Positions 1,901 through 19,381 of a stretch of 19,381 nt of DNA are shown one piece after another. Origin of the DNA: a virus (Duplodnaviria; Heunggongvirae; Uroviricota; Caudoviricetes). The notes under the pieces are model-generated. The model had not been told where the DNA came from. It did not search any database and saw only the letters and a program-made list of their open reading frames with translations. Each line of letters begins with the position of its first letter. Position 1 is the stretch's first letter. Position numbers and translations under genes: made by a program. The stretch spans positions 1 to 19,381 of IMG/VR virus record IMGVR_UViG_2861069343_000003; one strand, given 5' to 3'.

Positions 1901-1963
1901 ATATGTAATCCATTAAGTCATTAAAATATATCGCAATAAACACACTATTTAAACTCACAAACC

Positions 1964-2004
1964 AGCCGCAGTATCCTGCCATGGCAAGTTGCTGCGGCTT
2001 TTTA
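1964..2004. terminator. bidirectional rho-independent terminator between the convergent RT operon and the prophage late genes
   Basis: 8-bp stem AGCCGCAG (1964-1971) pairs with CTGCGGCT (1992-1999), with an inner palindrome TGCCATGGCA. TTTT (2000-2003) follows on the + strand and GGTTTGTGAGTTT follows on the - strand. It coincides with the switch from AT-rich to roughly 50% GC sequence. Confidence 0.7.
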
Positions 2005-2007
2005 TGT

Positions 2008-2301
2008 TCAACGGATCAACAGCCAGATCAGAAGACACGCTACCATCGGCACAGCAAAATCCATCAGGCTTGCCACATCCCATGCGCGTGGATCAAAACC
2101 GCCCCACCACGGCATGTTAATCCGCTTGCCATGCCCGAACATTTCAATCCAGCGATATTATGCTTGGGTGTGTTCGCCCGCAATGAAGAACGTACAACTG
2201 GCTATCGCTCCGTAAACCCAGTTTCCGGTAAAAAGCCCCACCAGTATCTGCGCAGCCACAGCACAAAGTGCATGAAGGAAAGGTGTTATACCCATTTTCA
2301 T
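2008..2301 (-). pseudogene. small hydrophobic prophage membrane protein interrupted by an in-frame TAA (97 codons in total if read through)
   Basis: Hand translation of the - strand from ATG 2301 (or ATG 2295, with AGGA upstream) gives MKMGITPFLHALCAVAAQILVGLFTGNWVYGAIASCTFFIAGEHTQA. A TAA follows at 2158-2160. The same frame then continues YRWIEMFGHGKRINMPWWGGFDPRAWDVASLMDFAVPMVACLLIWLLIR to TGA at 2008-2010. Each half is under 60 aa, so neither appears in the ORF track. The + strand ORF 1981-2313 listed there is the antisense artefact. Confidence 0.55.
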
Positions 2302-2337
2302 CCTACCCAATAAAACGGGGCGCACAGCCCCTTAATA

Positions 2338-5300: not shown

Positions 5301-6039
5301 TTGCCGCCACTTTTGAAGCCGACGCATCCCGGGCTGAGGTGGCAGCTTCTGACGCTTTCGTGGTCGCGGTGGATGCAGAAGTGGCCGCAGATTTTTGTGA
5401 TGCTGCGGCATTCGTTTCTGACGTTTTCGCTGCACCGGCACTGGTGGCTGCCGCGCTTTTTGAAGACTCTGCAGCGGCAGCACTTTTTGATGCTTCAGTA
5501 GCCTTTGTTGATGCCGTTCCTGCGCTGGAAGACGCTGACTGAGCCGACGACGCGGCCTGTCCGGCTGACGTGCTGGCTGCGCGTGCGGAGTCCGCAGCAT
5601 CAGTCGCATGGGTTGCCGCCTCACGGGCTGATGTGCGGGCATCACTGGCTGACTTCTTCGCGGCTGCCGTGTTCTGTGCTACTGCGGACGCGTTACGCGC
5701 CACCTCTTCCACCATCAGTTCAAAGCGGCGCAGTGCCTCCGGACGGACATCATCCTCCGTCATGGCACCGAGAAAATCATTCAGCGTACCCGGTTGTGAG
5801 TCTTCATACACGGTGATGGTCCCGGCATGCGATGGCGGGAAGCCTTCCACCAACAGAATAACGCTGTACTGACCGTACTCAACGTCCATGCTGTAACGCC
5901 CGGCTTCATCCGGGTTTTCTGAGGCCACTGTGTTCACCACCACCGTGGTGCTGTTGCGCCTGGCCTTTAGCTGAATGGTGCAGTTTTGTATCGGCTTACC
6001 TGCGCCATCTTTCAGTACACCTGAAATCCGTACTGCCAT
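2338..6039 (-). CDS. stf: side tail fibre protein: lambda Stf-like N-terminus, divergent distal part and C-terminal S74 chaperone domain
   Basis: The N-terminal ~340 aa (MAVRISGVLKDGAGKPIQNCTIQLKARRNSTTVVVNTV...GRYSMDVEYGQYSVIL...TITVYEDSQPGTLNDFL, then the Ala/Ser-rich AAKTSETNA repeats) match lambda Stf (orf-401) as I remember it. The middle ~760 aa is beta-rich and unrelated to lambda Stf; it contains the tail-fibre motif GDVMSGDLDI. The C-terminus is an S74 domain. ATG at 6037-6039, preceded by GGGGGGA. Confidence 0.9.
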   Translation of the reverse strand: MAVRISGVLKDGAGKPIQNCTIQLKARRNSTTVVVNTVASENPDEAGRYSMDVEYGQYSVILLVEGFPPSHAGTITVYEDSQPGTLNDFLGAMTEDDVRPEALRRFELMVEEVARNASAVAQNTAAAKKSASDARTSAREAATHATDAADSARAASTSAGQAASSAQSASSSAGTASTKATEASKSAAAAESSKSAAATSAGAAKTSETNAAASQKSAATSASTATTKASEAATSARDASASKVAAKSSETSAASSAGSAASSATAAGNSAKAAKTSETNADNSAQAAADSQTASANSATAAKKSETNAKNSEAAAKVSETNAKASENKAKEYLDKVGGLVSPMTQYDWPVVTGNESFYIKIAKLSDPGSGNCHVTLMVTNAGNYGSPYGNIDFIEISARGLPSLLSADNVSRHLSIRRLGSTGLTDNNQMRYGLVKGDGFIEVWAFQRAFINGAKVAVLAQTARPELYIPDGFVKQTAAPSGYVESPVVRIYDQLNKPTKADLGLSNAMLTGAFGLGGSGISTNGKMSDVEILKALRDKGGHFWRGDRPTGSTATIYSHGSGIFSRCGDTWSAINIDYSTAKIKIYAGNDARLNNGTFSVNELYGSANKPSKSDVGLGNVTNDAQVKKSGDVMSGDLDILKETPSIRLKSAKGTAHLWFMNNDGSERGVVWSPENNESLGEIHIRAKNTKGESSGDFIVRHDGRVEARNLKITYKISAATAEFANTSTSSDNTTVSIKGSQHTPLVLTSNNTIKNLSIGFKVDDVDQKYLGIAGDGDLYFGSYSDHTKNSKVITQAKLDSGVTVGGKTTFSDLATFNAGMAGSIEPETIDNKTIDLNDLIIANTVAGSVKYYQCKTVAGGAYITNKPDGVSGNFLLRVESTRKTTGSDYAIMQTLIGSDTKRIYVRFVVNGSWTEWSQVVVSGWNQDVTVRSLTSTTPSKLGGGRVDVLGSTSDYSSMNCAVRGVDSTGTNSAWSVGTSKNTGKMLCLKNHRSSAQVLLNGDDGAVQLLSGTVNGATAQALTINKDEVNSTADLVIRKQTGTGNRFALLNSGNSELPVSIRVWGSSTRQNVFEVGTSAAYLFYAQKTTDGQNLTVNGSVNCTTLNQSSDRRLKENIEIIDNATDAIRKINGYTYTLKENGAHCAGVIAQEVEEAIPEAVGSFIHYGEELQGPTVDGNELREETRYLNVDYAAVTGLLVQVARETDDRVTSLEEENAELKQRLSAIEAALASK
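2341..2715 (-). other. intramolecular chaperone auto-processing domain (peptidase S74 type) at the tail fibre C-terminus
   Basis: The last 125 aa begin SDRRLKENIEIIDNATDAIRKINGYTYTLKENGAHCAGVIAQEVEEAIPEAV and end in a coiled-coil, LEEENAELKQRLSAIEAALASK. This is the typical S-D-x-R-x-K self-cleavage signature of endosialidase/tailspike chaperone domains. The Ser codon is at 2713-2715. Confidence 0.8.
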
Positions 6040-6050
6040 ATTCCCCCCAC

Positions 6051-6075
6051 AAAAAAACCCGCCTGAACCGGCGGG
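6051..6075 (-). terminator. rho-independent terminator downstream of lom
   Basis: The - strand reads CCCGCC-GGTTCA-GGCGGG followed by TTTTTTTG (stem 6058-6063 / 6070-6075, A-run 6051-6057 on the + strand). It lies 12 nt upstream of the stf start. Confidence 0.8.
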
Positions 6076-6103
6076 CTGTCATAACACTGTGTTACCTGGC
6101 TAA

Positions 6104-6703
6104 TCAGAATTTATAACCGACACCCACGATGAAACCGTCAGTGCGCCAGTCACCACTGCCGGAACCTTCATAAGCAATATCAATGGCCACGGATTCGGTC
6201 GGGTTAAACTGCACGCCAGCCCCCCACGCCAGAGACGTGTTGCTGTGGCGACCGTCATCACTTCCGGTCAGCACATCGTGCGTTTTCCCCTTGTTGTCAG
6301 TTACGCGGAGATAATCCCCGGAGAAAGTCGACACACGGCTGTAAGCCACACCCGCCATCGCATACGCGCTGAACCATTCATTCACGCGCACAGACGGCCC
6401 CGCCATCACGCTGAACCAGCGGTTACGCACGGAATCCTCATGCCAGCGGGTATCGCTGTAATGCGTTTTTTGCTCATCTTCAGCGTTGGCATAACTGAAT
6501 GACGTAATCAGCCCCAGCGTGTCCGTAAACTCATAACGGTATTTCACGTTAATCCCGTTCAGATTATCGCTGCCGGGAGCGTTCGTACGGGCATGAAGAT
6601 ACCCTGCGCTCAGTGTGGCCTGCTGCTCAGACGCCCATGCAGGCGCACCGGATACGGCCAGACAGATGGCTGCGGACAAAATGGCTGCACAAACTTTACG
6701 CAT
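6104..6703 (-). CDS. lom: Lom outer-membrane protein (Ail/Lom family beta-barrel), a prophage moron
   Basis: The 199-aa product MRKVCAAILSAAICLAVSGAPAWASE...SLAWGAGVQFNPTESVAIDIAYEGSGSGDWRTDGFIVGVGYKF is near-identical to lambda Lom as I recall it. It has a signal peptide ending AWA-SE and an SD GAGAGG before the ATG at 6701-6703. Confidence 0.95.
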   Translation of the reverse strand: MRKVCAAILSAAICLAVSGAPAWASEQQATLSAGYLHARTNAPGSDNLNGINVKYRYEFTDTLGLITSFSYANAEDEQKTHYSDTRWHEDSVRNRWFSVMAGPSVRVNEWFSAYAMAGVAYSRVSTFSGDYLRVTDNKGKTHDVLTGSDDGRHSNTSLAWGAGVQFNPTESVAIDIAYEGSGSGDWRTDGFIVGVGYKF

Positions 6704-6725
6704 AATTACCTCTCGCTTTTCTGCA

Positions 6726-6752
6726 ATAAAAAAGGCGCCAGAAATGGCGCCC
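6726..6752 (-). terminator. rho-independent terminator between J and lom
   Basis: The - strand reads GGCGCC-ATTTCT-GGCGCC followed by TTTTTTATT (stem 6734-6739 / 6746-6751). Confidence 0.8.
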
Positions 6753-6771
6753 GCATATGGGTTATGAAAAT

Positions 6772-9700
6772 TCAGCTAATCGTGATACCTGCTGTGGATT
6801 TCTTCATCACCACAACCAGCAAATCACTGATACTGGCTGTGGGATACCAGTCATTTACCAGCCACGCTGATACCGAAAACTCCAGCGTCATGTGACCGCG
6901 ACCAGCAGGCATATCAATAACACCTGTATAAACCAGCGTATTATCCAGCGCGGTACGGTTATAAATTTCAGCACCGTTTTTCTTCACTATCAGGCGGCAT
7001 GACGAATAAATATCGTTATTCTCCCGCTCATGTTTAGCGCCACGAAACGCCACCGCGGGAATAACAATCTGCCGGTCAAACGGCTGATCGTCATAAACCC
7101 TGACGGTAATGGTCCCTGATGGCCACCGCTCCGGTGCACGGGAGTCCCGGGGGAAAGCTTTGCCCACTGTTTTAACGAGATCGCCTTCAATCTGGTTCGC
7201 AGACAGTTTTCCCAGAACCCGACAGTTTTCATTTATCGTGACATTGTTGAGCGTCCCGGCGTTCGCATTCACACTGCCACTGATATCCGCATTTTTCGCC
7301 GTCAGTCGCCCGTCCGGTGTAAGGGAAAATACCGGAGGATTACCGCCGCTGGTAATGGTGGGAGCCGTCAGATATTTCAGGAACACTTCGTTCATGAATA
7401 TCTGATCGCCCTGACCAACAAACATCGGCTTTGTGTTGCCATTCGCAGGATTAATCATCGCAATCCTGTCTGCCGCCAGCAGCACCTGACTCTGCATGCC
7501 GTCAGGGGTGTTCTCAATACCGGCACCAATACCCGCGATATAAAGGCGTCCGTCCTGCATCTGCTGCAGCTTCACAGCCCACATGCTGTTCAGGTTATTA
7601 TTTGTATCAACCTGAACCTTCTGTATCTGCTGAATTGCCGCACTCTGGTCTTCCAGTTTCTTATTGACGGTCTGTGTGATTTCATTGCTGACATCCGTAA
7701 TGGATGTCCTGATTTCAGCCAGGTCAGGCGCAAGCTGACCGTTATCAATCTGCGTCCACAGCTCCTGAGCCAGATGGGTTTTCCCTATCTCGCCTTTGAA
7801 AAAATCCAGATAGCCGGATGCGTCATCACTCGGCTGACCAACAGCCTCCACGAATGCCGATTTGCCAACGGTGTTCACACTGCGAACGTAAAAATAATAA
7901 TTATGGCCCGGTTTGATATTGATACTGGCGGCTATCCAGTACAACGCCGTACCAAGATAGCGTGCTGTGGTTTCAACCTGCCTGATATCCGCAATCCGCT
8001 TTTCCGAGAACCAGAACTCAAACTGTACCGTCGGATCATAAACCGCAAGATGCGGCGTGGCGGTTATCTGAAAATAGCCCGGCGTCAGCTCAATCCGCGA
8101 CGGCGCTGCCGGTGCGGCAATCCGGAACGATACCGACGCCGGATCGCCCTGCTGCCCCCACGCATTTACTGCCCGGACTGTCAGCCTGTAGTTCCCCAGA
8201 GCCAGTTGTGTGAAGCGGTAAGTGGTTTCCGTCGTCCGGGCCGTGCTGACCAGCCGCTCACTGCCGTCATCCGCTGCCACGGTCAGGCGAAGCAGGAAGC
8301 TCACGCCCTTCACCACCTTCGGCGTGTCCCAGCGGGCCAGCACCTGGTATTCCCCGCTGTCTGCGGTGACTTCTGCGGTCAGATGCTGCACTGCTGGCGG
8401 CGTGACACCATTCACCGTGCCGCTCTGGTCGCCGTCAAAGTGCGCCCCGTTATCCACGATGGCCTCTTTTTCCGGTACATGCTGCACGGCAGTGATGGCA
8501 TACGTGCCGTCATCGTTCTCACGGATACTCACGCAGCGGAACAGGCGCTGGCGCAGCGTCGGCAGCTTCAGCCCCCACACGCTGTACTCGGCAACGCCGT
8601 CAGGAAGCCGGCTCACTTTCACCTTCACGCCGTCGGTGATGGACTGGACCTCCACGCTGACCGGATTGCCACTTCCGTCAACCAGGCTTATCAGCGTGGT
8701 ACCGGAGGATGGCAGCGTGATTTCACGGTCGAGCGTCAGCGTCCGGGTCTGGCTGTTCACCGCCAGCACGCGCCCGCCGGTGCTGATACCGGCATAGTCA
8801 TCATCGCAGATTTCAATGACATCGCCCGGTACATGGCGAAGCCCTTCAGCACCCACGCTGAAGTCCACGGTCTGCGTTTCCAGCAGCTCCGTTTTAATCA
8901 GCCACAGCCCGGCGCGGTGCGCCTGCCCCCGACTGGTACAGCCAAACGCATCCATCTTCGTGACGTTACGACCATAACGGGCAATGGCCTGCGAGTCCTC
9001 CACAAGCTCTGTTGCCGTCTCCCAGCCGTTATCCGGGTCAATCCAGTTCACTTCAACGGCATTATGGCGGTCTTTCAGGGCGCTGAAGCTGTAGCGGAAT
9101 GGTGCGCCATCATCCGGCATCACCACATTACTGCGGTTATAGGTCCACACCTTATCCGATGGTCGGTCCTGCACGAACGTCAGCGTCTGCCCGTTCCATA
9201 CCGGCATACAGCGCATCGCCGAGCAGAAATCACTGAGCACATCCCACGCCTTACGTTGTGTGGTCAGGTAAGCGTTACAGGTGATGCGCGGCTCCGTACC
9301 GCCAAAGCCGTCCGGCACCGACTGGTCGCAATTCTGGCCGATGACATACAGCGCCCATTTGTCCACATCCGCCGCACCGAGACGTTTCCCCATGCCGTAG
9401 CGCGGGTGGGTCAGCATATCCCACAGACACCAGGCCATGTTGTTGCTGTATGACGGTTTAAACGTCCCGTCCCAGATACCGCTGTATTGCCGCGTCTGCG
9501 GGTTATAATTCGACGGCACCTGCAGAATACGCCCGCGAAGATGATAATTACGGCTCACCTGCTGGCTGCCGAACTGCTCCGAATCCACCTGTACGCCGAC
9601 CAGTGCCGTGTTCGGGTAGCACTGTTTCACATCGATGATTTCGGTGTATGACGACCAGAGCGTTTTGTTCTGCAGCTGGTCTGTGGTGCTGTCCGGCGTC

Positions 9701-10251
9701 ATCCTGCGCATCCGGATGTTGAACGGGCGCGGCGGCAGATTATCCACCACTACCGAGGCCAGATACTGCGAGGTGGTTTTGCCCTTAATGGTGATGTCTT
9801 TTTCCGTCACCCAGCCACCGTTACGCTGTATCTGAACCAGCAGGCGGACTTCCGACGGATTCCGGTCCCCCTTTGAAGTGGTTTCCACCAGTGCCTGCAC
9901 ACCGAAGGTAAAGCGCAGACGGTCAATGTTTGCCGACGTGATGGTCCGGGTGATCGGCGTGTCGTATTTCACTTCCGTGCCCAGTACCGTCTCGGAACCT
10001 GATGATTCAAATCCCTCCGGCGGTGTCTGTTCCTGCTCACCTGCCCGGAACACCACCGTGACACCGGAGATGTTAGTATTCCCCTCACTGTCCAGCACCG
10101 GTGTACTGTTCAGCAGCACGCTTTTTAATCCATCCACCGGACCTTCAACCGGCCCTTCGCTGATGGCATCGATCACACTCAGCAACTGCGTGGACTTCAG
10201 GTTGTCCTTTGCTTCGCGCGGGGTATGCCCCTTACTGCTGCCTTTACCCAT
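6772..10251 (-). CDS. J: tail tip / host specificity protein J
   Basis: 1159 aa. The N-terminus [34 protein letters not shown] and the overall length match lambda J (1132 aa). SD GAGGA precedes the ATG at 10249-10251. Confidence 0.96.
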
Positions 10252-10270
10252 TCCTCACGCCCCATAAACG

Positions 10271-10293
10271 ATAAAACCGCCCGGAGGCGGTTT
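10271..10293 (-). terminator. terminator-like hairpin in the I-J intergenic region
   Basis: The - strand reads AAACCGCC-TCCG-GGCGGTTTTAT (stem 10276-10281 / 10286-10291). It sits inside the late operon, so Q-type antitermination probably reads through it. Confidence 0.4.
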
Positions 10294-10311
10294 CACATAA
10301 AACGTTTTTCA

Positions 10312-10953
10312 TCAGCGACCAATCACCACAACCTGACCACCGTCCCCTTCGTCTGCCGTGCTGATCTCCTGAGAAACCACGCGTGATCCCACGCGCATTT
10401 CACCGTACAGAACGGGCAGAACATTGCCCTGGGCAACCATATTATCCAGTGAAGAAAAATAGGTGTTCTGTTTGCCGTTATCCGTTGTCTGTGTGCGGGG
10501 GGTTTTGGGTTTAGGGGCCAGCATCTGTGCAACACCGCCAAGCGTCATACTGGCACCGAGAGAAAACAGCAGATTACTCGCCATAATTCCTACCCCCGGC
10601 ATCCATATAGCAACCGCCATAACAGCCGCCCCCAGCACAGCCTGAAACACACCGCCACTTTTGGCTCCTGCCAGACGCGGCACGATATGGATCACAGCAC
10701 CATTTGCCAGCGGTTCATTAAGACGGGCTGATAATTCCGTTTCACCTGTATCACGCCCGGCAATGCGTACCTGATACCAGCCGTCGCTCAGCTTCTGACG
10801 AAACGCCGGGAGCTGTGTGGCCAGTGCCCGGATGGCTTCAGCCCCCGTTTTCACACGCAGATCGATGCGGCGGCCAAATCGTTGTAAATCCCCGTAAAGG
10901 CAGATGCGCGCCATGCCCGGTGACGCCAGAGGGAGTGTGTGCGTCGCTGCCAT
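10312..10953 (-). CDS. I: tail tip assembly protein I
   Basis: The 213-aa product MAATHTLPLASPGMARICLYGDLQRFGRRIDLRVKTGAEAIRALATQLPAFRQKLSDGWYQVRIAGRD...QEISTADEGDGGQVVVIGR matches lambda I. It overlaps the end of K by 103 nt, as in lambda. Confidence 0.94.
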   Translation of the reverse strand: MAATHTLPLASPGMARICLYGDLQRFGRRIDLRVKTGAEAIRALATQLPAFRQKLSDGWYQVRIAGRDTGETELSARLNEPLANGAVIHIVPRLAGAKSGGVFQAVLGAAVMAVAIWMPGVGIMASNLLFSLGASMTLGGVAQMLAPKPKTPRTQTTDNGKQNTYFSSLDNMVAQGNVLPVLYGEMRVGSRVVSQEISTADEGDGGQVVVIGR

Positions 10954-11594
10954 TTGTCGGTATACCTCTCTCGTTTGCTCAGTTGTTCAGGAATATGGTG
11001 CAGCAGCTCGCCGTCGCCGCAGTAAATTGCGGCGTGATTCGGCACCGATGAACCAAAACAGCACAGCAGCACATCGCCCGGCTGTGCCGCTGACAACGGC
11101 ACCTGATACAGCCCCGTCGCCTCCAGATTATCCAGATAGAGATTCTGGCCGTTACGCCACCAGTCATCCTCACGATGAAAGTCCGGCATCTCAATCCCCG
11201 CCAGATGATAAGCATCCCGGAACAGTGTGTAACAGTCCGTCACACCGTGCTCAAAGCGCCGCCCGGTGAGATGCGGCACACAGCGGAACTTATGAATCGT
11301 CCCCCGGCAGACCAGCCACCACGGCAAATCACTCTGCACCTGCAGCCGCCGGTCGGCCTCACTCAGCCAGGGCAGACCACCGGGGTGGCTGTGGACCAGC
11401 GCCACAATCTCACCCTGCATTTCTGCCTGCAGCCAGTCTTCCGGCGACATACGGAAATACGCCTCCGGCTCACCGGAGATATTCACGCAGGGGAAATATC
11501 TTTCCCCCTCCGGCGTGCTTACCACGAAGCCGCACGACTCCGCTGGCGCACATCGCCGGGCGTGCGCCAGAATCGCTGATTCTGTCTGTGTCAT
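10851..11594 (-). CDS. K: tail tip assembly protein K (MPN/JAB plus NlpC/P60-like domains)
   Basis: The 247-aa ORF begins MTQTESAILAHARRCAPAESCGFVV and contains HSHPGG (JAB motif) and GVTDCYTLFRDAY (NlpC/P60 Cys), matching lambda K. The classical 199-aa lambda annotation would start at the internal MSPEDW. Confidence 0.94.
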   Translation of the reverse strand: MTQTESAILAHARRCAPAESCGFVVSTPEGERYFPCVNISGEPEAYFRMSPEDWLQAEMQGEIVALVHSHPGGLPWLSEADRRLQVQSDLPWWLVCRGTIHKFRCVPHLTGRRFEHGVTDCYTLFRDAYHLAGIEMPDFHREDDWWRNGQNLYLDNLEATGLYQVPLSAAQPGDVLLCCFGSSVPNHAAIYCGDGELLHHIPEQLSKRERYTDKWQRRTHSLWRHRAWRASAFTGIYNDLAAASICV

Positions 11595-11599
11595 GGGAT

Positions 11600-12082
11600 T
11601 TACTGCGAAAGTTTGTTAATGGAAAGGAAGCCGCCAAAGTTGCCGACGTTATTGCGGAACTTACAACCGCTCAGGCATTTGCTGCATTTATCCTTCGTGA
11701 TATCGGACGTTGGCTGGTCATATTCATCCGCGACAGCCGGACCGCTATAACCGCACTCGTCACCGCGATAGGTCCAGGTGCAGGTGTTGGCCAGCATGAT
11801 ACGTCCCGGAAAAACAGCGCCATCCGTTTCCGTCGGCGTGGACAGTACAAAGGAGGCACTCACCGCGCTCAGTTCGCTGCACTGCTCAATGCGCCAGCGG
11901 CTGATCACCTCCTGCTCCGGATCGGCATAACTGTTTCCGTTGACGAAGTTCACCGCATCCAGAAAACGGGCGTAAACATTACGCCGGACCACCGTTCCGC
12001 CGACCAGACTCTGCATATCTTCCGCCATCCCGGTGACCATACCGTACAGGTTAGAAACCGTCAGCGTGGGGCGCGTACCGCT
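11600..12082 (-). pseudogene. L: 5'-truncated minor tail protein L (about the last 160 of about 232 codons retained)
   Basis: ORF 11600-12040 (MVTGMAEDMQSLVGGTVVRR...FGGFLSINKLSQ) matches the C-terminal part of lambda L. The in-frame match continues upstream through TRPTLTVSNLYG to about 12079-12085. The frame then hits TGA at 12107-12109 and similarity is lost. No M, H, T, G, V, U or Z genes, and no head genes, follow. Confidence 0.85.
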
Positions 12083-12088
12083 CTTTTT

Positions 12089-12177
12089 ACAAAACAGAGA
12101 AGAGCATCACCGGACGACGGGCTCATAACCCAATCCATCCGGGCGGCAGTCACCGCAGGTGTTCTTCTCTGTTTTGT
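12089..12177. repeat. 89-bp unit bounded by perfect 15-bp inverted repeats, at the L truncation junction
   Basis: ACAAAACAGAGAAGA (12089-12103) is the exact reverse complement of TCTTCTCTGTTTTGT (12163-12177). The spacer is 59 bp and contains the direct repeat TCACCG twice (12107-12112 and 12150-12155). Confidence 0.8.
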
Positions 12178-12225
12178 GGAGAAACCAACCGACCTTGCAG
12201 GGTCGATATGATGGGGAGCAGCAAA

Positions 12226-12588
12226 ATGGCTAGCGAACGCAGTACTGATGTGCAGGCATTTATCGGGGAGCTGGACGGCGGCGTATTTGAAACCAAAATC
12301 GGCGCAGTTCTCAGTGAAGTCGCTTCCGGTGTGATGAACACGAAAACCAAAGGTAAGGTCTCGCTCAACCTGGAAATCGAACCGTTTGATGAGAACCGTG
12401 TGAAAATCAAACACAAACTCTCATATGTTCGCCCGACTAACCGCGGGAAAATTTCCGAAGAAGACACCACCGAAACGCCGATGTATGTCAATCGCGGTGG
12501 TCGCCTGACTATTCTGCAGGAAGACCAGGGACAATTACTGACTCTTGCCGGTGAACCTGACGGAAAACTCCGCGCAGCAGGTCATTAA
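12226..12588 (+). CDS. yfdP: YfdP-like prophage protein of unknown function
   Basis: The ORF track starts at 12208. ATG 12226 is preceded by GGGGAG (12213-12218) and gives 120 aa (MASERSTDVQAFIGELDGG...), the length I recall for K-12 YfdP. It sits immediately upstream of yfdQ, as in CPS-53. Confidence 0.6.
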   Translation: MASERSTDVQAFIGELDGGVFETKIGAVLSEVASGVMNTKTKGKVSLNLEIEPFDENRVKIKHKLSYVRPTNRGKISEEDTTETPMYVNRGGRLTILQEDQGQLLTLAGEPDGKLRAAGH

Positions 12589-12653
12589 TATCGTTCTTAA
12601 TTAACTGATTATTTATCTCATCACTGAATATCTTTATATAGTGAGGACTTATT

Positions 12654-13478
12654 ATGTCTCAGAACTTAGACGCAACCGCAATTAATCAAATCCATGCCCT
12701 TATTTCTGCTCAGGGTGTTAATGAAATTATCAGTAAAATTGGTGCCGATGCTGTGGCATTGCCTGAGAATTTCCGCATTCATGATCTGGAAAAATTTAAT
12801 TTAAATCGCTTCCGTTTCCGTGGTGCGCTTTCCACTGCCAGCATCGATGACTTTACCCGTTATTCTAAAGATCTTGCAGATGAAGGCACCCGCTGCTTTA
12901 TCGATGCTGATAATATGCGAGCCGTCAGTGTGCTTAACCTGGGTACTATTGATGAACCAGGTCACGCAGATAACACCGCCACTCTCAAACTGAAAAAGAC
13001 AGCACCGTTCTCTGCCCTGTTGTCTGTTAACGGCGAGCGTAACTCCCAGAAGTCACTGGCAGAATGGATTGAAGACTGGGCCGACTACCTTGTGGGCTTT
13101 GATGCTAATGGTGACGCCATTCAGGCAACAAAAGCGGCTGCGGCGGTCCGTAAAATCACGATTGAAGCAAACCAGACCGCTGATTTTGAAGACAATGACT
13201 TCAGCGGCAAACGCTCTCTGATGGAGTCTGTCGAAGCGAAAACCAAAGACATTATGCCAGTAGCATTTGAGTTTAAATGCGTTCCATTTGAAGGCCTGAA
13301 AGAACGTCCGTTTAAATTACGCCTCAGCATTATCACTGGTGATCGCCCTGTACTGGTTCTGCGCATTATTCAGCTGGAAGCAGTACAGGAAGAAATGGCT
13401 AACGAATTTCGTGATCTGCTTGTTGAAAAATTCAAAGACAGCAAAGTAGAAACCTTTATTGGTACTTTCACCGCCTGA
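12654..13478 (+). CDS. yfdQ: YfdQ-like prophage protein (DUF2303 family)
   Basis: 274 aa, the same length as K-12 YfdQ. SD GAGGA lies 7 nt upstream. Its position between the yfdP-like and yfdR-like genes supports the call. Confidence 0.75.
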
Positions 13479-13491
13479 TTTCATTACTGCA

Positions 13492-13514
13492 AATGCCCCT
13501 GCGGGGGCATTTAT
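13492..13514 (+). terminator. terminator-like hairpin after yfdQ (a weaker second hairpin lies at 13537-13560)
   Basis: AATGCCCC-TGC-GGGGGCATTTAT. The second hairpin is TCGCC-TGAT-GGCGA followed by GGGTTTTCTTT. Confidence 0.5.
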
Positions 13515-13605
13515 GGAAACGTAATTAACTCAATAATCGCCTGATGGCGAGGGTTTTCTTTAACCAAAATTCAGCGCGGTGCAGCGCATATACGTGGAGA
13601 ACAAA

Positions 13606-14142
13606 ATGTCATTTATTAAAACTTTTTCCGGGAAGCATTTTTATTATGACAGGATAAATAAAGACGACATCGATATTAACGATATCGCGGTTTCCCTTTC
13701 AAATATCTGTCGCTTTGCCGGTCATCTTTCGCACTTCTACAGCGTCGCCCAACATGCGGTTCTTTGCAGCCAGCTGGTGCCGCAGGAATTTGCTTTTGAA
13801 GCGTTAATGCATGATGCAACAGAAGCGTATTGCCAGGACATTCCCGCACCACTGAAACGCCTTCTTCCTGACTATAAACGGATGGAAGAAAAAATAGACG
13901 CCGTAATCCGTGAGAAATACGGGTTACCCCCGGTTATGAGCACGCCAGTGAAATATGCCGATCTCATCATGCTGGCAACCGAACGCCGCGATCTCGGACT
14001 TGATGATGGCTCTTTCTGGCCTGTACTGGAAGGTATCCCGGCAACAGAGATGTTCAAAGTGATTCCACTGGCTCCAGGCCATGCCTACGGGATGTTTATG
14101 GAACGTTTTAACGAGTTATCGGAGTTACGCAAATGCGCATGA
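13606..14142 (+). CDS. yfdR: HD-domain phosphohydrolase YfdR (5'-nucleotidase family; reported DnaA-binding prophage protein)
   Basis: The ORF track starts at GTG 13579. ATG 13606 follows GGAGA and gives 178 aa starting MSFIKTFSGKHFYYD, the length and N-terminus I recall for K-12 YfdR. HD signature residues are visible in AQHAVL and in ALMHDATEAY. Confidence 0.85.
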   Translation: MSFIKTFSGKHFYYDRINKDDIDINDIAVSLSNICRFAGHLSHFYSVAQHAVLCSQLVPQEFAFEALMHDATEAYCQDIPAPLKRLLPDYKRMEEKIDAVIREKYGLPPVMSTPVKYADLIMLATERRDLGLDDGSFWPVLEGIPATEMFKVIPLAPGHAYGMFMERFNELSELRKCA

Positions 14143-14495
14143 ATGTTTTCGAAATGGAAGGGTTTCTTCGCGGGAAATGTGTACCGCGAGATCTGAAAGT
14201 GAACGAAACAAATGCTGAGTACCTGGTACGTAAATTCGATGCGCTTGAAGCTAAATGTGCGGCACTGGAAAACAAAATAATACCAGTGTCAGCTGAACTA
14301 CCACCAGCAAATGAAAGTGTTCTGTTATTTGATGCTAACGGAGAAGGCTGGCTGATTGGCTGGCGTTCTCTCTGGTACACCTGGGGACAAAAAGAAACCG
14401 GAGAATGGCAGTGGACATTTCAGGTCGGGGACATTGAAAGCGTCAATATCACTCACTGGGCAGTAATGCCAAAAGCACCGGAGGCTGGAGCATAA
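14133..14495 (+). CDS. yfdS: YfdS-like prophage protein
   Basis: 120 aa, the same length as K-12 YfdS. The start overlaps the yfdR stop by 10 nt, with GGAG 8 nt upstream. The stop overlaps the next start (TAATG). Confidence 0.65.
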   Translation: MRMNVFEMEGFLRGKCVPRDLKVNETNAEYLVRKFDALEAKCAALENKIIPVSAELPPANESVLLFDANGEGWLIGWRSLWYTWGQKETGEWQWTFQVGDIESVNITHWAVMPKAPEAGA

Positions 14496-15115
14496 TGACC
14501 ACATTTACCGATAAAGAACTGATTAAAGAAATCAAAGAGCGTATCAGCAGCCTGGAGGTTCGAGACGATATTGAGCGCCGTGCTTATGAAATTGCTCTGG
14601 CATCGCTGGAAGAGGAGCCGGTGGCATGGCTACATTCAGACAATGGCTTAGGTATTCCAGCAATAACCAGGAGTAAAAACATTGCTGACAGTTGGTTATC
14701 AAAGGGCTGGTATGTTCAGCCGCTATATATAGCCAAGCCAGTGCCGGTGGTGCCAGATGCTCGTCCGACTTTAAATAATGGCATAGTCGGTTTTGATGAA
14801 GGCTGGAACGCCTGCCGCACCACCATGCTTCACGGTGTCAAACCTGTAAGCCAGACTTACAAGTTGAACAAGCTGTCTGACAACTCTCCGGTAACTCCGG
14901 ATGGTTGGATAAGCTGTAGTGAGCGAATGCCGAACGATAAACAATATGTTTGGTGTTGGGGTAAGTCTTACGGCTGGACTGAGTGCGATACCTTCGAAGG
15001 GTATTACGATTGTTCGAGAAACAAATGGTGGGCAGTTACTGACGATGGGGAAGAACCGGCATTGAAAGTAACCCACTGGATGCCGCTACCGGAGCCACCG
15101 CAGGAGGTGAAGTAA
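14495..15115 (+). CDS. DUF551-type prophage protein (YfdT-like, full length)
   Basis: 206 aa. The C-terminal Trp/Cys-rich part (GWISCSERMPNDKQYVWCWG...WWAVTDDGEE...VTHWMPLPEPP) resembles DUF551 as I remember it. It is coupled on both sides by TAATG overlaps. Confidence 0.6.
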   Translation: MTTFTDKELIKEIKERISSLEVRDDIERRAYEIALASLEEEPVAWLHSDNGLGIPAITRSKNIADSWLSKGWYVQPLYIAKPVPVVPDARPTLNNGIVGFDEGWNACRTTMLHGVKPVSQTYKLNKLSDNSPVTPDGWISCSERMPNDKQYVWCWGKSYGWTECDTFEGYYDCSRNKWWAVTDDGEEPALKVTHWMPLPEPPQEVK

Positions 15116-15309
15116 TGAACAACTTAATGACAACTAAACAAGTCGCCGACTTCTGTGGCGTTTCAGTATCGACAGTTCTTCGCTGGAACAGCGTAAACAG
15201 GAGAACTGGCCAGAAATATAGGCCTGACTTTCCAGATCCTGATATTAAATCCTGCCCCAATAAATGGGCATCACACAAGATATACAGGTTTGCGGGAGTT
15301 ATTGAGTAA
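15115..15309 (+). CDS. small HTH DNA-binding protein, AlpA/excisionase-like
   Basis: 64 aa. LMTTKQVADFCGVSVSTVLRWN is a typical AlpA/Xis helix-turn-helix. A strong SD AGGAGGTGA precedes it. It is the last gene of the early operon and faces the integrase end. Confidence 0.6.
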   Translation: MNNLMTTKQVADFCGVSVSTVLRWNSVNRRTGQKYRPDFPDPDIKSCPNKWASHKIYRFAGVIE

Positions 15310-15322
15310 TACGTATTAGTTC

Positions 15323-15387
15323 AGATGTGAGCTAACACATCTATGGCACAGAGCTAAACCTAATCTGACTGTCTACTCTGTGCCATA
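15323..15387. repeat. two adjacent hairpins between the convergent excisionase and 870-aa genes
   Basis: Hairpin 1: AGATGTG (15323-15329) / CACATCT (15336-15342). Hairpin 2: a perfect 12-bp stem TATGGCACAGAG (15342-15353) / CTCTGTGCCATA (15376-15387) with a 22-nt loop. Neither is followed by a U-tract in either direction. Confidence 0.7.
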
Positions 15388-15442
15388 AGTGGATGTTAAT
15401 TACTTCTTGGTATTTTAATGGTTGGATAGCTTATCAAGATTA

Positions 15443-18049
15443 CTAATCACCCTGTGATGTAAAATAAAACCAATGGTATTCTAGAGCTTGCATAGACAAC
15501 CCAACCTTGTCCCTCAATAGGACACCATTCAGCTCCTGATAGTACCTATCGCGCACCATATCACTTACGTGAATCCTTAAAGTCGCTGGGTCAATAGATA
15601 TTAGATAGTTATCAAAGAGACGATGTATATCAGTACGCAATAACAAGCCATTTTTTATATGATTATCCTTATCTCCTCTGTAAGGATAAATATGAGCTGC
15701 ATCAAGTACTGCTATTGTTTTGCACCCAGTAAAGGCACATTGCCCCCAAACGTTTATCAGTTTATTTCTGAAGTCGCTTTGACCTATACGTATCGTGACG
15801 TTTCTATTTATAACCTTTCGTTCATCAGAGTTATTTATTTTAAAACTCCCTGCTGTTGAAAAATCAAATTTTTCAGTCGCACTAAATATTTTTTTAGATT
15901 GTTTTTTTACTTTTGCAAGCTGTAAATCTGACTTTATTTGTAAGGGTTTTGAGTTTTCTTCATCAAACGATGGAAGTTGAAGTTCTTTAATCATGCTGGT
16001 AGATAGAAAATTTTTGTAACTCATTAACTTAAAATCTAATCCTCGCTCATAACGAATTTTAGAGAGCACTATTGCAGCTTCTTCAATGTATTTAAAACTA
16101 CTTTTCCTTTTATCCCATAATTGAGATAAACAATCTGCATTTAACCTATCATATCTTGATAAAATCTCACCCAAACTGCTGGCTTTAGCGGCGCTATCAT
16201 AGTTTATATACTGTTTTTCTTGGGAATCTTCAATGGAATCCAGAATAAAATTTATATTTACATGATTATCTGCATCTGCATCTGCAGATGCAGATGAATC
16301 ATTAAAATTATCGTAGTCAAGAGAATTTTGATCACTCCAAATAGGTAGCGATAGATAGCAAATATTATCAATGCTGTCGTCCACCAACATTAATTTTTGG
16401 TGGAGTAAAAATAATATAACTGAAGCTTCAAGGTAATTCATTTCTTGTGACAAGAATTTTTCTTTAAGCATATCAAAGTCATATTGTACGTATTCATTTT
16501 TTTTCTTTGATATTACGGAGAGTTGCTCTTCACTTAAGACCACTGGCCTGTCTTCTGATATATTACGAAGTAAGTATGAAATCAATTTTTTTTGATTTTT
16601 TTTAGAATCTTCAGACCTAGGAGGTTCGAGAAACACACCTTCAAGTCTATCCAATGCTTTAAGGCAACTTCCCGCAAGCCTAGTCATCGCATCTTTTCTT
16701 GTTTGAATTAGAGGATCTGCATAGATAACAAAATTATCCCCATTACGAATATGAGCTATTTCAAGCTGATATACATCTAGATTTTTTATAAGTTTAAATA
16801 CAAATCCGTATTTTTGCATTCTATGCAAAGTCAGTGTCGGTATAATATCTTTATTAGATTCTTCATCCAAATTATAGTTTTTTATTCTTTTGTACAACCA
16901 ATTTGTTGCAGAGGAAGAGCAAATTAACTCATTATATTGAATTTTACTATTTTTAGTTATCAGATTTAGAAGAGACATTCCAAACAATGCCTGAATACAA
17001 TCTACATAATAAGATATAGTTGTATAATCTGGATGTCCTTTATAGGGGAGAGAATCTATTGAAATAAAACCTGAGTTATAGAATCTCATAAAGTTTTTTT
17101 CAGATAACACCATGATCCCTAACGTAGTTCTGTCAATAACATTCTGTCCATTTTTTATTATCTCAAGTAGGCTTACTGAAGCTAGTAAGGAAATATAATG
17201 CGAACCTAAAGTAGCGAGATCTCTGTGCGAACTTATAGATCTATTTTTACCCTTTATTCTAGGGGGTATAAAAGCCTGGATTGAATTAAAGTTATTTGAA
17301 AAACCAAAAGCCATGTTCAATTCATTGTTGATGTAACACTCTTTAACATTCGGTTTCTGTACGCCACCCCATGCTGAAATAATACTATTAGATTTTAATA
17401 TTTGTTTTTTATTGTTTTTCAAATTCAAATGATTGCAAACTAAACTGGCAACATTATTCTCTGCTTTTTTTTTACTCTCACCACTTCCGATAAATATCTG
17501 TCCATTAGGAAGTGCTATTTCAGACTCATATATTGGTGCATGCTCGGTCCCACCAGCCAAGGTGGTTTTGTATGTAGGGATTATGTGTTGATGTCTTTGG
17601 AAATATTCATGTAAAAGAGTTTTTGGGGGTTTGCCAACAAATGACTCCGTAATAGAAAGGCTTTCAACAAAAAATTTGAGATGTAATATGATATCACAAT
17701 TAGATATCGCCCCTAGGTAAAATTGAAATATTTGAATTATCATAGAAGATGAGTTGATTTCTTCTTGTTTTACTCCAGGACCAAATTCTGTTTGTTGGTA
17801 GACTTTTGTTAAGGGAAAATTTGTAACAACAAGCTCTCTTAGTTTTTTCTTCAGGCTGCTAGTCATAATGCTTAAATTGTTACCATCCGCACCTTCTATA
17901 CTCAGAGACCGACAAGCGCAGATTAAATCCTCAAGCGACTTACCAACTGATACAGTTGCGTTAAACAATTCAGTATTGCAATTAAAAGATGAACGATGAC
18001 TTATCTGAATATAATTTTCGTTGATATGATTTATGAATAACTTATTCAT
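15443..18049 (-). CDS. large AT-rich cargo protein: two tandem (degenerate RNase III + dsRBD) modules, an unassigned helical/acidic region, and a C-terminal HNH (HNH_2-type) nuclease; candidate anti-phage effector
   Basis: The ORF track starts at GTG 18055 (870 aa; residue numbers below use that numbering). The GTG lies inside the SD GAGGTG (18058-18053), so ATG 18049 (residue 3) is the likelier start. The stop is TAG at 15443-15445. Domain evidence is given in the sub-features. A sigma70-like promoter lies upstream. Confidence 0.9.
   Translation of the reverse strand: [868 protein letters not shown]
15566..15802 (-). other. C-terminal HNH nuclease domain (HNH_2-like)
   Basis: [67 protein letters not shown] follows the pattern R-x-GQ-x-FR...C-x-x-TG...AAHI-x-P...NGL-x-L...H-x-x-FD that I associate with Pfam HNH_2. 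The candidate catalytic triad is H788, N802 and H811. Confidence 0.8.
16643..17233 (-). other. module 2: second degenerate RNase III-like domain (aa ~245-365) plus a divergent dsRBD-like segment (aa ~402-471)
   Basis: Written as this protein / Rnc. [18 protein letters not shown] / [39 protein letters not shown] / [37 protein letters not shown] / [16 protein letters not shown]. E38, E41, D45 and E117 align to R, A, S and Q; only D114 is kept. The dsRBD-like end is [21 protein letters not shown] / [21 protein letters not shown]. This match is weaker than module 1. The sub-feature coordinates begin at the [8 protein letters not shown]-equivalent motif. Confidence 0.5.
17426..17998 (-). other. 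module 1: catalytically degenerate RNase III-like domain (aa ~20-135) plus dsRBD (aa 142-210)
   Basis: By-eye alignment to E. coli Rnc, written as this protein / Rnc. [18 protein letters not shown] / [26 protein letters not shown] / [23 protein letters not shown] / [36 protein letters not shown] / [41 protein letters not shown] / [21 protein letters not shown]. The Rnc acidic residues E38, E41, D45, D114 and E117 align to T, F, V, Q and Q. Confidence 0.7.
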
Positions 18050-18081
18050 TTTCACCTCGTGTATTATTCGATAAAGATCAC

Positions 18082-18110
18082 ATTGTACGTGATATCAACT
18101 ACTTGCTCAA
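18082..18110 (-). promoter_or_regulatory. candidate sigma70 promoter for the 870-aa gene
   Basis: On the - strand: -35 TTGAGC (18110-18105), a 17-nt spacer, then -10 TACAAT (18087-18082). It lies about 30 nt upstream of the SD and ATG. A short inverted repeat ATCAC/GTGAT (18077-18081 / 18089-18093) brackets the -10. This is a motif-only prediction. Confidence 0.45.
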
Positions 18111-18157
18111 AGCAGATCGTCATATCCTATTGCGTTCTAGCTACGTAAACTATCCTA

Positions 18158-19381
18158 TCAGTTAGAGTCTGAGTTAGTACAAGTAACAATCGATTCAACT
18201 CTCTCCCACCATGCCTGGTAGGCTTTACGCTGTTCTTCTAGATAATCGCTCTTGTCATAAACTTGCCATACCCCTGGCAGTTTATGACCTAGCATTATTT
18301 CTGCAATATGAGGCGCAGTAAGATCAGAAAAGTTTGTTCGTGCTGTTCGTCTCAAATCATGAAGAGACCAATGAGGAAATTGATACCCCAAACGCCGCCA
18401 TGCGTACTGCATTAAATTGTAAGGCAGCGACTGCAATGATGTCCGACCAACTGGTTCCCTGCTTCCTTCCTTAGTAAAAAGCATATCGGAACCGTTGTTC
18501 ATAGAGATAACGTATTTTATAATCTCTTCAACCGGTTCAATAATGGGCCGCTTTAGCGGTTCGCCTGTTATATCCCCTGTCTTATGTCGTTCTGGTGGTA
18601 CAGTCCATATCTTATTAATGAAATCAAAATCGTCCACCTTGGCAGTAATTAGCTCTGAACTACGGCAACCAAAATGAAGCAATAGTTTAATGAAGGCCCG
18701 GTATTTAGGAACCATTCGAGAACCATCGATCGCAGCATAAAGGATTTTAATTTCATCATGTGTCAGAAACCGTTTCTTCTGACCTTTACGGATATCCATA
18801 TCTTTACCCGTGATATCCGACAGCGGGCGAGTTTCAATGAGCTTTCTCTTATACGCCCAGACATGGGCCTGCTTTGCGTTAATTAGCAATCGGTCTGCTA
18901 TTGCTGGAGTCTTAGTGCTAAGAGGCTCCAGGACTTCTAACCAATCATGCAATGTAGCTGCATCGTTAGGGATATTCCCGATTTTAGAGAACAGGTGCAG
19001 CTCAAACGAGCGGAGTATCTGTTCAGAACCTTTTTTATTTTTTACACAATATGCTTCATACCAGGCACGGATCACAGACTCTACCGTCATGGCTTCAGTA
19101 GCTTTTCGTTTTTCAGCCTGCTTGACCAATCGTGGATTACGGTTTGACTCGAGTTCACCACGGAGACGGATAACTTCTTCTCTGGCCTCTTTTAATCCAG
19201 TTGCCGGGTAAGTTCCGATATCAAGACGCTCACCTTTCCCTGCCCATTGATAACGATATTGGAACACTACGCGACCTTTCGGTGATACTCTGACAGACAA
19301 ACCATCACGATCGGATTTAACCAAAACCTTATCACGTTCCTTTCCAACGACTGAACGCAACCACGCATCAGACAGCGCCAT
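18158..19381 (-). CDS. tyrosine recombinase / phage integrase, P4-type (DUF4102-like N-terminal arm-binding domain)
   Basis: 407 aa, with the ATG exactly at the window edge (19379-19381). The N-terminus MALSDAWLRSVVGK...DGLSVRVSPKGRVVFQYRYQWAGKGERLDIGTYPATGLKEAREE is the typical P4-integrase N-domain. Catalytic signature residues are visible in FGCRSSE (Arg), HDLRRT (His-x-x-Arg), LGH (His) and VYD (Tyr). Confidence 0.95.
   Translation of the reverse strand: MALSDAWLRSVVGKERDKVLVKSDRDGLSVRVSPKGRVVFQYRYQWAGKGERLDIGTYPATGLKEAREEVIRLRGELESNRNPRLVKQAEKRKATEAMTVESVIRAWYEAYCVKNKKGSEQILRSFELHLFSKIGNIPNDAATLHDWLEVLEPLSTKTPAIADRLLINAKQAHVWAYKRKLIETRPLSDITGKDMDIRKGQKKRFLTHDEIKILYAAIDGSRMVPKYRAFIKLLLHFGCRSSELITAKVDDFDFINKIWTVPPERHKTGDITGEPLKRPIIEPVEEIIKYVISMNNGSDMLFTKEGSREPVGRTSLQSLPYNLMQYAWRRLGYQFPHWSLHDLRRTARTNFSDLTAPHIAEIMLGHKLPGVWQVYDKSDYLEEQRKAYQAWWERVESIVTCTNSDSN

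Follow-up and report, generated by a model that had tools for sequence, protein, structure and literature searches.

Bacterial class 1 RNase III (Rnc; PDB 7r97, and 2ez6/1yz9 from Aquifex aeolicus) is a housekeeping enzyme that works as a homodimer, each chain of which presents a helical RNase III domain followed by a double-stranded RNA-binding domain (dsRBD). In Dicer and Drosha, two RNase III domains are paired within one chain. A link of this fold with biological conflict has also been predicted in cyanobacteria, where HEPN-RNase III-dsRBD fusions with single active RNase III units were described as 'two-headed RNases' (Anantharaman et al. 2013, PMC3710099). These fusions are the nearest published idea to the gene analyzed here, which occupies positions 15443..18049 (- strand) of a 19,381-nucleotide stretch of DNA from the class Caudoviricetes (IMG/VR record IMGVR_UViG_2861069343_000003, positions 1 to 19,381; hereafter the window, always at its full length). 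The gene encodes a protein of 868 residues, annotated with identical limits in RefSeq as 'HNH endonuclease' (WP_086625076.1). It resembles the cyanobacterial proteins (PMC3710099) in being a bacterial conflict protein that pairs RNase III and dsRBD with a second nuclease, but its units are in tandem and predicted to be dead, and the partner is an HNH domain instead of HEPN. Overall, it is very probable that the protein consists of a dead tandem RNase III/dsRBD region and an intact HNH_2 nuclease.

Residues 1-472 are formed by two units, each with an RNase III-like domain followed by a dsRBD. Pfam analysis of the single sequence displayed two domains only, dsrm at residues 142-208 (E 2.6e-10) and HNH_2 at residues 771-820 (E 2e-13). 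Neither Pfam nor NCBIfam recognized an RNase III catalytic domain in the single sequence, since the Ribonuclease_3 models remained below their cut-off, and the NCBIfam RNase III model covered the dsRBD portion only. The RNase III domains are detectable only with a family profile (an alignment of 26 sequences), which was compared by hhalign with a reference profile of 18 canonical RNase III sequences. Module 1 (residues 1-215) matched canonical RNase III with a probability of 99.9% (E 2.5e-32), and the catalytic part of its domain a alone with 81.6% (E 1.1e-5). Module 2 (residues 235-480) matched with 89.9% (E 1.7e-6) over 206 columns, in an alignment that stays in register across the catalytic domain and the dsRBD, and the catalytic part of domain b alone with 70.8% (E 3.8e-5). 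Reversed and column-shuffled controls scored 9-18 overall and 9-16 in the case of domain a, compared with 38-214 for the real profiles. Moreover, in an exhaustive HMMER search canonical RNase III proteins of 220-240 amino acids aligned at query residues about 16-210, that is, over the whole unit, and a PDB profile match to 7r97 extended back to residue 100. Within the family, domain b matched Pfam Ribonucleas_3_3 in 1/26 members and Ribonuclease_3 in 1/26, both below the cut-off. A previous examination of the DNA, made by eye from the letters alone (the sequence-only reading), had proposed two consecutive RNase III-fold plus dsRBD modules in the N-terminal half. The profile searches agree with it, directly for dsrm and HNH_2 and through the family profile for RNase III, and so do the structure searches described below.

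Regarding the order of the domains, RNase III-like domain a (residues about 1-135, 17645..18049, - strand) was detected by family-profile hhalign and modeled with a predicted local distance difference test (pLDDT) score of 84-95. It is followed by dsRBD1 (residues 142-208, 17426..17626, -), which is canonical and keeps its double-stranded RNA (dsRNA)-contact motifs, by RNase III-like domain b (residues about 240-398, 16856..17332, -), also detected by family-profile hhalign, and by a degenerate dsRBD2-like domain (residues about 403-472, 16634..16843, -). The last of these was delimited by the register of the module-2 alignment and by its alpha-beta-beta-beta-alpha topology in both AF2 models; it presents neither a GPxH nor a KKxAE motif, the RNA-contact motifs being lost. 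Residue numbers refer here to the 868-residue protein, and those of the sequence-only reading are 2 higher. At the fold level the protein presents the helical endonuclease-domain fold of the RNase III superfamily. With a dsRBD after each of its RNase III domains, the tandem region looks like a straight duplication of the bacterial RNase III unit.

The catalytic carboxylates of E. coli RNase III were mapped through the hhalign registers and counted over the 26 family sequences. Residues E38, E41, D45, D114, and E117 of the E. coli enzyme correspond to N30, V33, K37, Q106, and Q109 in domain a. In domain b they correspond to R276 (R/K in 25/25), A279 (A in 23/25), S283 (S or A), D350 (D in 21/24), and Q353 (Q in 22/24). 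Of the ten catalytic acids, only D350 survives and the other nine are replaced, and the ERLEFLGD signature of active RNase III is lost. The former catalytic positions of domain a are variable over the family, with the exception of K37, and the substitutions in domain b are themselves conserved. Both RNase III centers are therefore predicted to be catalytically dead, and an active RNase III was ruled out because the catalytic residues are absent. The protein is best described from its residues as an RNase III-like pseudoenzyme and not as an RNase III, since the fold is present twice but the catalytic signature fails. Compared with Rnc, its closest match in both sequence and structure, it carries two units in one chain in place of a homodimer and about 400 extra C-terminal residues that include the HNH domain, and its gene is prophage cargo and not a housekeeping gene.

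Three elements of dsRBD1 that contact dsRNA are conserved in 20-22 of 23-24 members: helix 1 contributes E148, the beta1-beta2 loop H170, and the beginning of helix 2 K193-K194-x-A196-E197. Substitutions of E117 in RNase III (E110 in Aquifex) abolish cleavage and keep dsRNA binding. The Q found at this position in the present protein is the same residue as in the Aquifex E110Q mutant, and PDB 1yz9, which is among the Foldseek matches, is that mutant crystallized with dsRNA.

The conservation of R276, A279, D350, and Q353 could also indicate a surface selected for another non-catalytic role, in which the dead RNase III would be an integrated decoy that mimics the host enzyme, detects phage kinases or inhibitors that target RNase III, and releases the HNH domain. 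The logic of a sensor as decoy is established in other immune systems, and the closest sequence and structure matches are indeed bacterial RNase III proteins, with that of E. coli first. Nevertheless, an identity of only about 20% to E. coli RNase III would make a poor mimic, the family is present in very different hosts and does not track the host rnc, and the conserved RNA-contact residues of the dsRBD point to RNA binding as the selected property. A decoy function is thus considered highly unlikely, and a module that binds RNA without cutting it is preferred.

AlphaFold, run with the alignment of 26 sequences, gave a model of mean pLDDT 75, in which the RNase III-like domains, the two dsRBD-like domains, and the HNH domain are modeled with confidence, and residues 573-623 and 698-755 are disordered (pLDDT below 50). 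RNase III proteins were the top Foldseek matches in the PDB, with E. coli RNase III first (E 1e-6) and Aquifex RNase III next. Dicer, DCL, and Drosha aligned over 480-560 columns, and the best viral structural match was a tandem RNase III from Satyrvirus. Giardia Dicer, which has no dsRBD, gave a rigid-body match of 257 residues to the model, and for this reason the two RNase III-like domains are taken to be modeled as a pair within the chain. The prediction, made with a predicted template modeling score (pTM) of only 0.47, is that they pair as in Dicer and Drosha. Apart from this predicted pairing, the protein differs from Dicer and Drosha in being dead, in lacking helicase, PAZ, and platform domains by Pfam, in having an HNH nuclease as effector, in carrying a dsRBD between the RNase III domains, and in a sequence nearer to bacterial RNase III. 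Covalent tandem RNase III domains, usually regarded as a trait of Dicer and Drosha, have thus arisen in bacterial mobile elements too, and this is a tandem RNase III example outside eukaryotes and giant viruses.

The C-terminal nuclease domain (residues 756-868, with the Pfam core at 771-820; 15446..15784, -) belongs to HNH_2 (PF13391, E 2e-13, 50.4 bits versus a cut-off of 21). The triad H786/N800/H809, together with R805 and D807, is invariant in the 20/20 members that cover this region, so the intact H-N-H assigned previously by eye is well founded. The middle of the protein, which had been described as about 270 unassigned residues with an acidic low-complexity linker, does contain this linker, and it turned out to be formed by two homologous helical repeats that flank it. 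Repeat 1 (residues 505-572, 16334..16537, -; pLDDT 77-91) belongs to no known family. It is followed by the acidic disordered linker (residues 573-623, 16181..16333, -), by repeat 2 (residues 624-697, 15959..16180, -), which was delimited in the family alignments, and by a second disordered linker (residues 698-755, 15785..15958, -). The repeats, of about 55-70 residues each, detect each other by hhalign (505-572 versus 622-697, 93.5%, E 2.3e-7), and neither of them has a significant Pfam or PDB match. Repeat 2 contains a motif, LW..R...F... (17 further letters not shown), that is the best-conserved stretch of the family apart from the HNH domain. The acidic linker differs in length among homologues, and P0003/P0004 carry a 55-residue P/A-rich insertion. 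A similarity between repeat 2 (622-700) and the N-terminus of AcrE1 was not significant (E 0.13) and was treated as chance.

The combination of an N-terminal nucleic-acid reader and a C-terminal HNH_2 in a single polypeptide is shared with the McrA-like Type IV enzymes (ScoMcrA; NF045808). However, the reader is here a dead RNase III/dsRBD region, and the similarity is confined to the HNH part. The NCBIfam model NF045808 (phosphorothioate-dependent restriction endonuclease) matched this part only (E 2e-4, 20.5 bits versus a cut-off of 180). PADLOC gave two generic HNH models at residues 713-834, with 'Type II restriction enzyme' HNH matches among them, and no full-length match, which rejects membership of any PADLOC-DB v2.0.0 system.

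These matches bear on a restriction-like explanation, in which the module would read an RNA:DNA hybrid (R-loop, primer, or transcription bubble) or an unusual or modified duplex, and the HNH domain would cut DNA in cis. Such cleavage has analogues, as the HNH of Cas9 cuts RNA-paired DNA and the Type IV HNH_2 enzymes cut beside a recognized mark. HNH_2 being the nuclease of McrA-like enzymes, the weak phosphorothioate-dependent enzyme match and the PADLOC restriction-type HNH models fit this explanation, as do a homologue that adjoins two GmrSD Type IV genes and the flexible linkers, which would permit cleavage near the bound duplex. On the other hand, dsRBD1 keeps the residue set that reads the 2'-OH on both strands of dsRNA, and both dsRBDs and RNase III domains are poor binders of hybrids and of B-form DNA. 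Besides, Pfam and PDB profile searches detected no reader of modified DNA, whether SRA, SBD, winged-helix, or other, and no SRA or SBD reader joined to the HNH was found by Pfam, NCBIfam, or PADLOC. Considering both sides, this explanation is regarded as unlikely, and dsRNA is retained as the putative ligand.

The tandem module is not exclusive to the HNH proteins. P0041, P0046 (L010, 372-2600), and P0079 carry it together with a PLDc_2 (NgoFVII-like) nuclease at the N-terminus; the second RNase III domain of P0046 and P0041 is above the Pfam Ribonucleas_3_3 cut-off, and both dsRBDs of these PLD forms are canonical. In P0071 and P0092 the module is joined to a C-terminal histidine-kinase ATPase. 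P0092 and the gene that follows it (together L011, 739-4553) overlap, and the second encodes a Response_reg domain fused to SLFN_AlbA_2. The N-terminal region of a histidine kinase is its input domain, and P0092 and this gene could possibly form a two-component system with a dsRNA-binding input. The motifs of domain b are NRLAFVGS and DVLQA in the PLD forms and NRLLALIGS and EMMQA in the kinase forms, with substitutions like those of the HNH family (E41 to A, D45 to S, E117 to Q, and D114 kept as D/E). These relatives share the module with the protein of the window and differ from it in lacking both helical repeats as well as the HNH domain, in having another output (N-terminal in the case of PLD), and, for the PLD forms, in their canonical dsRBD2.

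The occurrence of a single nucleic-acid-binding module with interchangeable outputs, either nucleases or signaling domains, lends indirect support to its reading as a sensor. To this extent the PLD and histidine-kinase/Schlafen fusions favor the earlier proposal that the protein senses phage-derived dsRNA, whereas the dsRNA trigger itself remains conditional. The same fusions can be set against the idea that the HNH domain acts as an RNase on the bound dsRNA (replicative forms of RNA phages or sense-antisense duplexes), replacing the lost chemistry. In such a case, the loss of RNase III catalysis and the gain of a new nuclease could be a swap of catalytic centers in a protein whose sensor domains all bind RNA, and some beta-beta-alpha-Me/HNH nucleases do cut RNA in vitro. 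But the fusions suit a sensor better than a scaffold that holds a substrate, the HNH_2 relatives of known activity are DNases, and about 280 residues, including two disordered linkers, lie between the tandem module and the HNH domain. An RNase role of the HNH domain is therefore very improbable, the least probable of the explanations weighed here, and the module is further treated as a sensor with a DNase output.

Concerning the spread of the family, a word-indexed protein search gave four clusters, at 100%, 85%, 46%, and 46% identity. A profile of residues 1-740, used in the exhaustive HMMER search, raised this to about 25 representatives of a divergent family, whose full-length members mostly have 840-940 amino acids and 19-40% identity. 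A module-2 profile search added one further fragment, and a metagenome scan returned mostly ordinary rnc genes and two family members. The hosts are diverse (E. coli, Acinetobacter, and marine and other metagenomes). Several homologues adjoin defense or mobile genes. That of L008 is directly after two GmrSD genes, that of L009, in a contig that is Acinetobacter-like, has a PIN_12 gene and a recombinase pair as neighbors, P0002 (L002, 85% identical) is preceded by a solo HNH_2 gene and followed by an IS3 element, and that of L003 adjoins an HTH_17 gene and a fragment of IS66. Two others (L021, 6198-8924, and L022, 7994-10750) are located in the nin-like moron region of lambdoid IMG/VR contigs, between replication genes (HTH_36, ParB-HTH) and DUF968/antiterminator Q; the first is 49% identical, and the second was matched only over residues 620-698. 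Since the neighbors differ in every locus examined and none is conserved, the system is a single gene; no conserved partner gene (antitoxin or immunity) was found at these loci, and the genes upstream in L002 and L009 are unrelated.

Some other features of these loci were also observed. In L002, the solo HNH_2 gene (2153-2872) encodes a separate protein of 239 amino acids immediately upstream of P0002 and is preceded by a gene for a 396-aa protein without family match, and the IS3 transposase is downstream. The cargo downstream of the L021 homologue comprises a 404-aa unknown protein, an NA37 nucleoid-associated protein, and a DNA methylase. Finally, a 62-aa open reading frame (ORF) lies 33 bp upstream of the homologue P0008 in two independent contigs (L005, 5528-5716, and L006, 422-610); it had no significant family match and was not seen beside other family members.

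The position of the gene in the prophage provides further context. It is directly downstream of the tyrosine integrase gene (18158..19381, -; Pfam Phage_integrase and Arm-DNA-bind_3, with RefSeq annotation and flanking genes in agreement) and is co-directional with it. The same integrase, at 95-99% nucleotide identity, is present in about 700/5426 E. coli genomes, and the segment between it and the DUF551/xis-like genes differs in each of the nine variants examined. This integrase-proximal site is a hypervariable cargo slot that carries validated defense systems. In strain AR437, which contains the window, the slot holds the RNase III/HNH gene, in L012 Dsr1, in L015 a CHAT-domain pair (BovA of Borvo in PADLOC, E 1e-174, split into two ORFs), in L019 a 'restriction endonuclease' with a second gene, and in L013, L014, L016, L017, and L018 unrelated hypothetical proteins. 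The five sets of hypothetical proteins had no PADLOC match and are themselves candidate defense genes.

It should be noted that all well-resolved loci with a mobile context are prophages or mobile elements, that HNH nucleases are common in phages, and that the HNH part alone has relatives of 33-44% identity in Salmonella, Vibrio, and Pantoea phages. The gene could then serve the phage and not the host, through regulation by RNA structure, degradation of host DNA during the lytic cycle, or exclusion of competitors only, or it could be a selfish nuclease. This is decidedly unlikely, however, as none of 50,697 sequenced phage genomes carries the architecture at full length, the gene is retained in a decayed prophage without head, lysis, and regulatory genes, and the slot carries bona fide defense genes in sister elements. 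Homing HNH genes are small and without sensor domains, and a homing endonuclease was ruled out by the size of the protein, its sensor domains, and its absence from phage genomes; as for competitor exclusion, the exclusion of other phages by a prophage amounts to defense.

A defense role is fairly probable for the RNase III/HNH protein, because Dsr1, Borvo, and a restriction-like gene are found at this slot in sister prophages, the homologues lie beside defense or mobile genes, and a DRT-type pair is present at the other end of the same element. The slot and the context of the homologues support in this way the defense function proposed by the sequence-only reading, while abortive infection, an outcome it had suggested, would be one of the possible results. 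The pair mentioned is formed by a SLATT gene (window 1-552, +; PADLOC E 1e-56), whose ORF runs past the window start, and a reverse transcriptase of the UG17 class (window 524-1900, +; PADLOC E 1e-158). It constitutes a DRT-type candidate defense pair at the tail-fiber end of the remnant, in a second AT-rich island (GC 0.31-0.36), and the defense-like cargo at both ends of the prophage has outlived the phage itself.

Taking this into account, the reading preferred here, tentatively and at slightly less than an even chance, is that the gene encodes a single-protein, prophage-carried anti-phage nuclease whose sensor is a covalently duplicated dead RNase III. The dead RNase III pair and dsRBD1 would bind an A-form duplex without cutting it, and the most likely ligand would be long dsRNA, produced by convergent or antisense transcription of the phage or by the replication of RNA phages. 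Binding would turn on the HNH nuclease. In the favored version, several protomers would load co-operatively side by side on long dsRNA and their HNH domains would meet, a way of loading that would discriminate against short host duplexes. Alternatively, the two helical repeats and the acidic linker between them could mediate the release of an autoinhibitory contact. The HNH domain would then cleave DNA (phage, host, or both) and stop phage production, by restriction or by abortive infection. The combination of a dsRNA trigger with DNA cleavage is plausible, though held with appreciable doubt. Rather doubtful is the broadest form of the proposal, namely that this would be the first bacterial dsRNA pattern-recognition receptor on an RNase III scaffold, one that is laid out like the processing center of Dicer/Drosha, measures the long dsRNA of phage infection, and activates a DNase, within a wider set of HNH, PLD, and two-component-Schlafen proteins.

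Several points weigh against this proposal. E. coli always contains dsRNA, which is processed by the host RNase III, and an unregulated dsRNA-activated DNase would be self-toxic, the discrimination step being conjecture. HNH_2 is best known from modification-dependent restriction enzymes and not from abortive infection. The model leaves the relative placement of the domains uncertain (pTM 0.47), and its RNase III dimer geometry may be one that AlphaFold had learned and imposed. Neither module directly detects the other by hhalign (E 0.21-0.26, not significant), and the internal duplication is therefore deduced via RNase III and not from a direct match. The second dsRBD, which the sequence-only reading had included, stands as a fold in the model, but it is degenerate, and by its own sequence it was not significant against canonical dsRBDs or dsRBD1 (E 0.03-0.05). 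Furthermore, the family is tiny and patchy, most clusters at 90% having 1-3 members. No full-length relative was found by tblastn in 50,697 phage and 72,556 plasmid records at the sensitivity used, and two scans of GTDB species representatives were negative, also at the sensitivity used. Lastly, the L005 homologue has housekeeping-like neighbors.

As for its novelty, the architecture is undescribed in PADLOC-DB v2, NCBIfam, Pfam, the PDB, and a full-text literature search of partial coverage, so the claim of the sequence-only reading that no described defense system is known to have this architecture survives in these sources. The protein is probably a new immune protein. Single-protein sensor-plus-nuclease defense genes in prophage hotspots are already known, and it is this sensor that was previously undescribed. 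Other proteins with related domains, such as PKR (a eukaryotic dsRBD sensor) and the mitoribosomal mL44 (an inactive RNase III-like binder), present no homology to it beyond the shared domains, and their effectors and biology differ. Bacterial immunity detects phage DNA, proteins, nucleotide depletion, and, in few cases, specific RNAs; to our knowledge, a general bacterial dsRNA receptor akin to Dicer, PKR, OAS, or the RIG-I-like receptors is not established. If the proposal is true, dsRNA sensing, a pillar of eukaryotic antiviral immunity, would extend to bacteria, and it could protect against RNA phages, which are invisible to DNA-targeting systems. The E. coli gene is cloneable, which makes this candidate for dsRNA sensing directly testable, and a dsRNA-gated nuclease could become a tool.

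Concerning the coding sequence itself, the gene was present at at least 99% identity in 17/5426 complete E. coli genomes. The ORF reported earlier is real and in its longer version spans 15443..18055 (-), with 870 codons from a GTG at 18055. Translation likely starts at the ATG at 18049, giving 868 amino acids and a stop; this start is preferred because a GAGG lies 5 nt upstream of it and RefSeq annotates the same 868-aa coding sequence. The AT-rich island seen by eye is also confirmed, with a GC content of 0.31-0.36 over 15501-18000 versus about 0.5-0.6 in the body of the prophage. As regards the promoter-like element that had been attributed to the gene, a sigma-70-like consensus scan did find a weak match in the spacer between the integrase and the gene (TTGAGC-17-TACAAT, 9/12; 18082..18110, -). 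It is not evidence on its own, however, because such matches are no commoner than in shuffled sequence (9 found versus 14.1 expected).

The prophage that contains the window is a decayed lambdoid element between prfC and yjjG in the E. coli chromosome, and the window shows 100% identity to strain AR437. According to the RefSeq annotation, the AR437 remnant retains tail genes, a yfdP-yfdR block, DUF551 genes, and the integrase, and is without head, lysis, and regulatory genes. In the window (L001), tail fiber, Lom, J, and tail-assembly genes are present at 2338-12040 (-), a truncated minor tail protein L borders on the yfdP block, and head, lysis, replication, and immunity genes are missing.

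The RNase III/HNH gene is convergent with a + strand operon whose last gene is a 64-aa ORF (15115..15309, +), absent from the RefSeq annotation. The earlier placement of the gene downstream of the integrase and convergent with this operon is correct. The ORF, which gave a weak HTH_17/MerR-type match below the threshold (E 1.4e-4), may be the prophage excisionase. An Rfam search of the window gave no match. Between the convergent genes, two adjacent hairpins were read directly from the sequence (15323..15386). The first has a perfect 7-bp stem (15323-15342, AGATGTG/CACATCT), and the second has a perfect 11-bp stem (15343-15353 / 15376-15386, ATGGCACAGAG/CTCTGTGCCAT) and a 22-nt loop. As they lack a T run, the terminator scan did not call them; they could serve as a bidirectional terminator or as a binding site for a protein.

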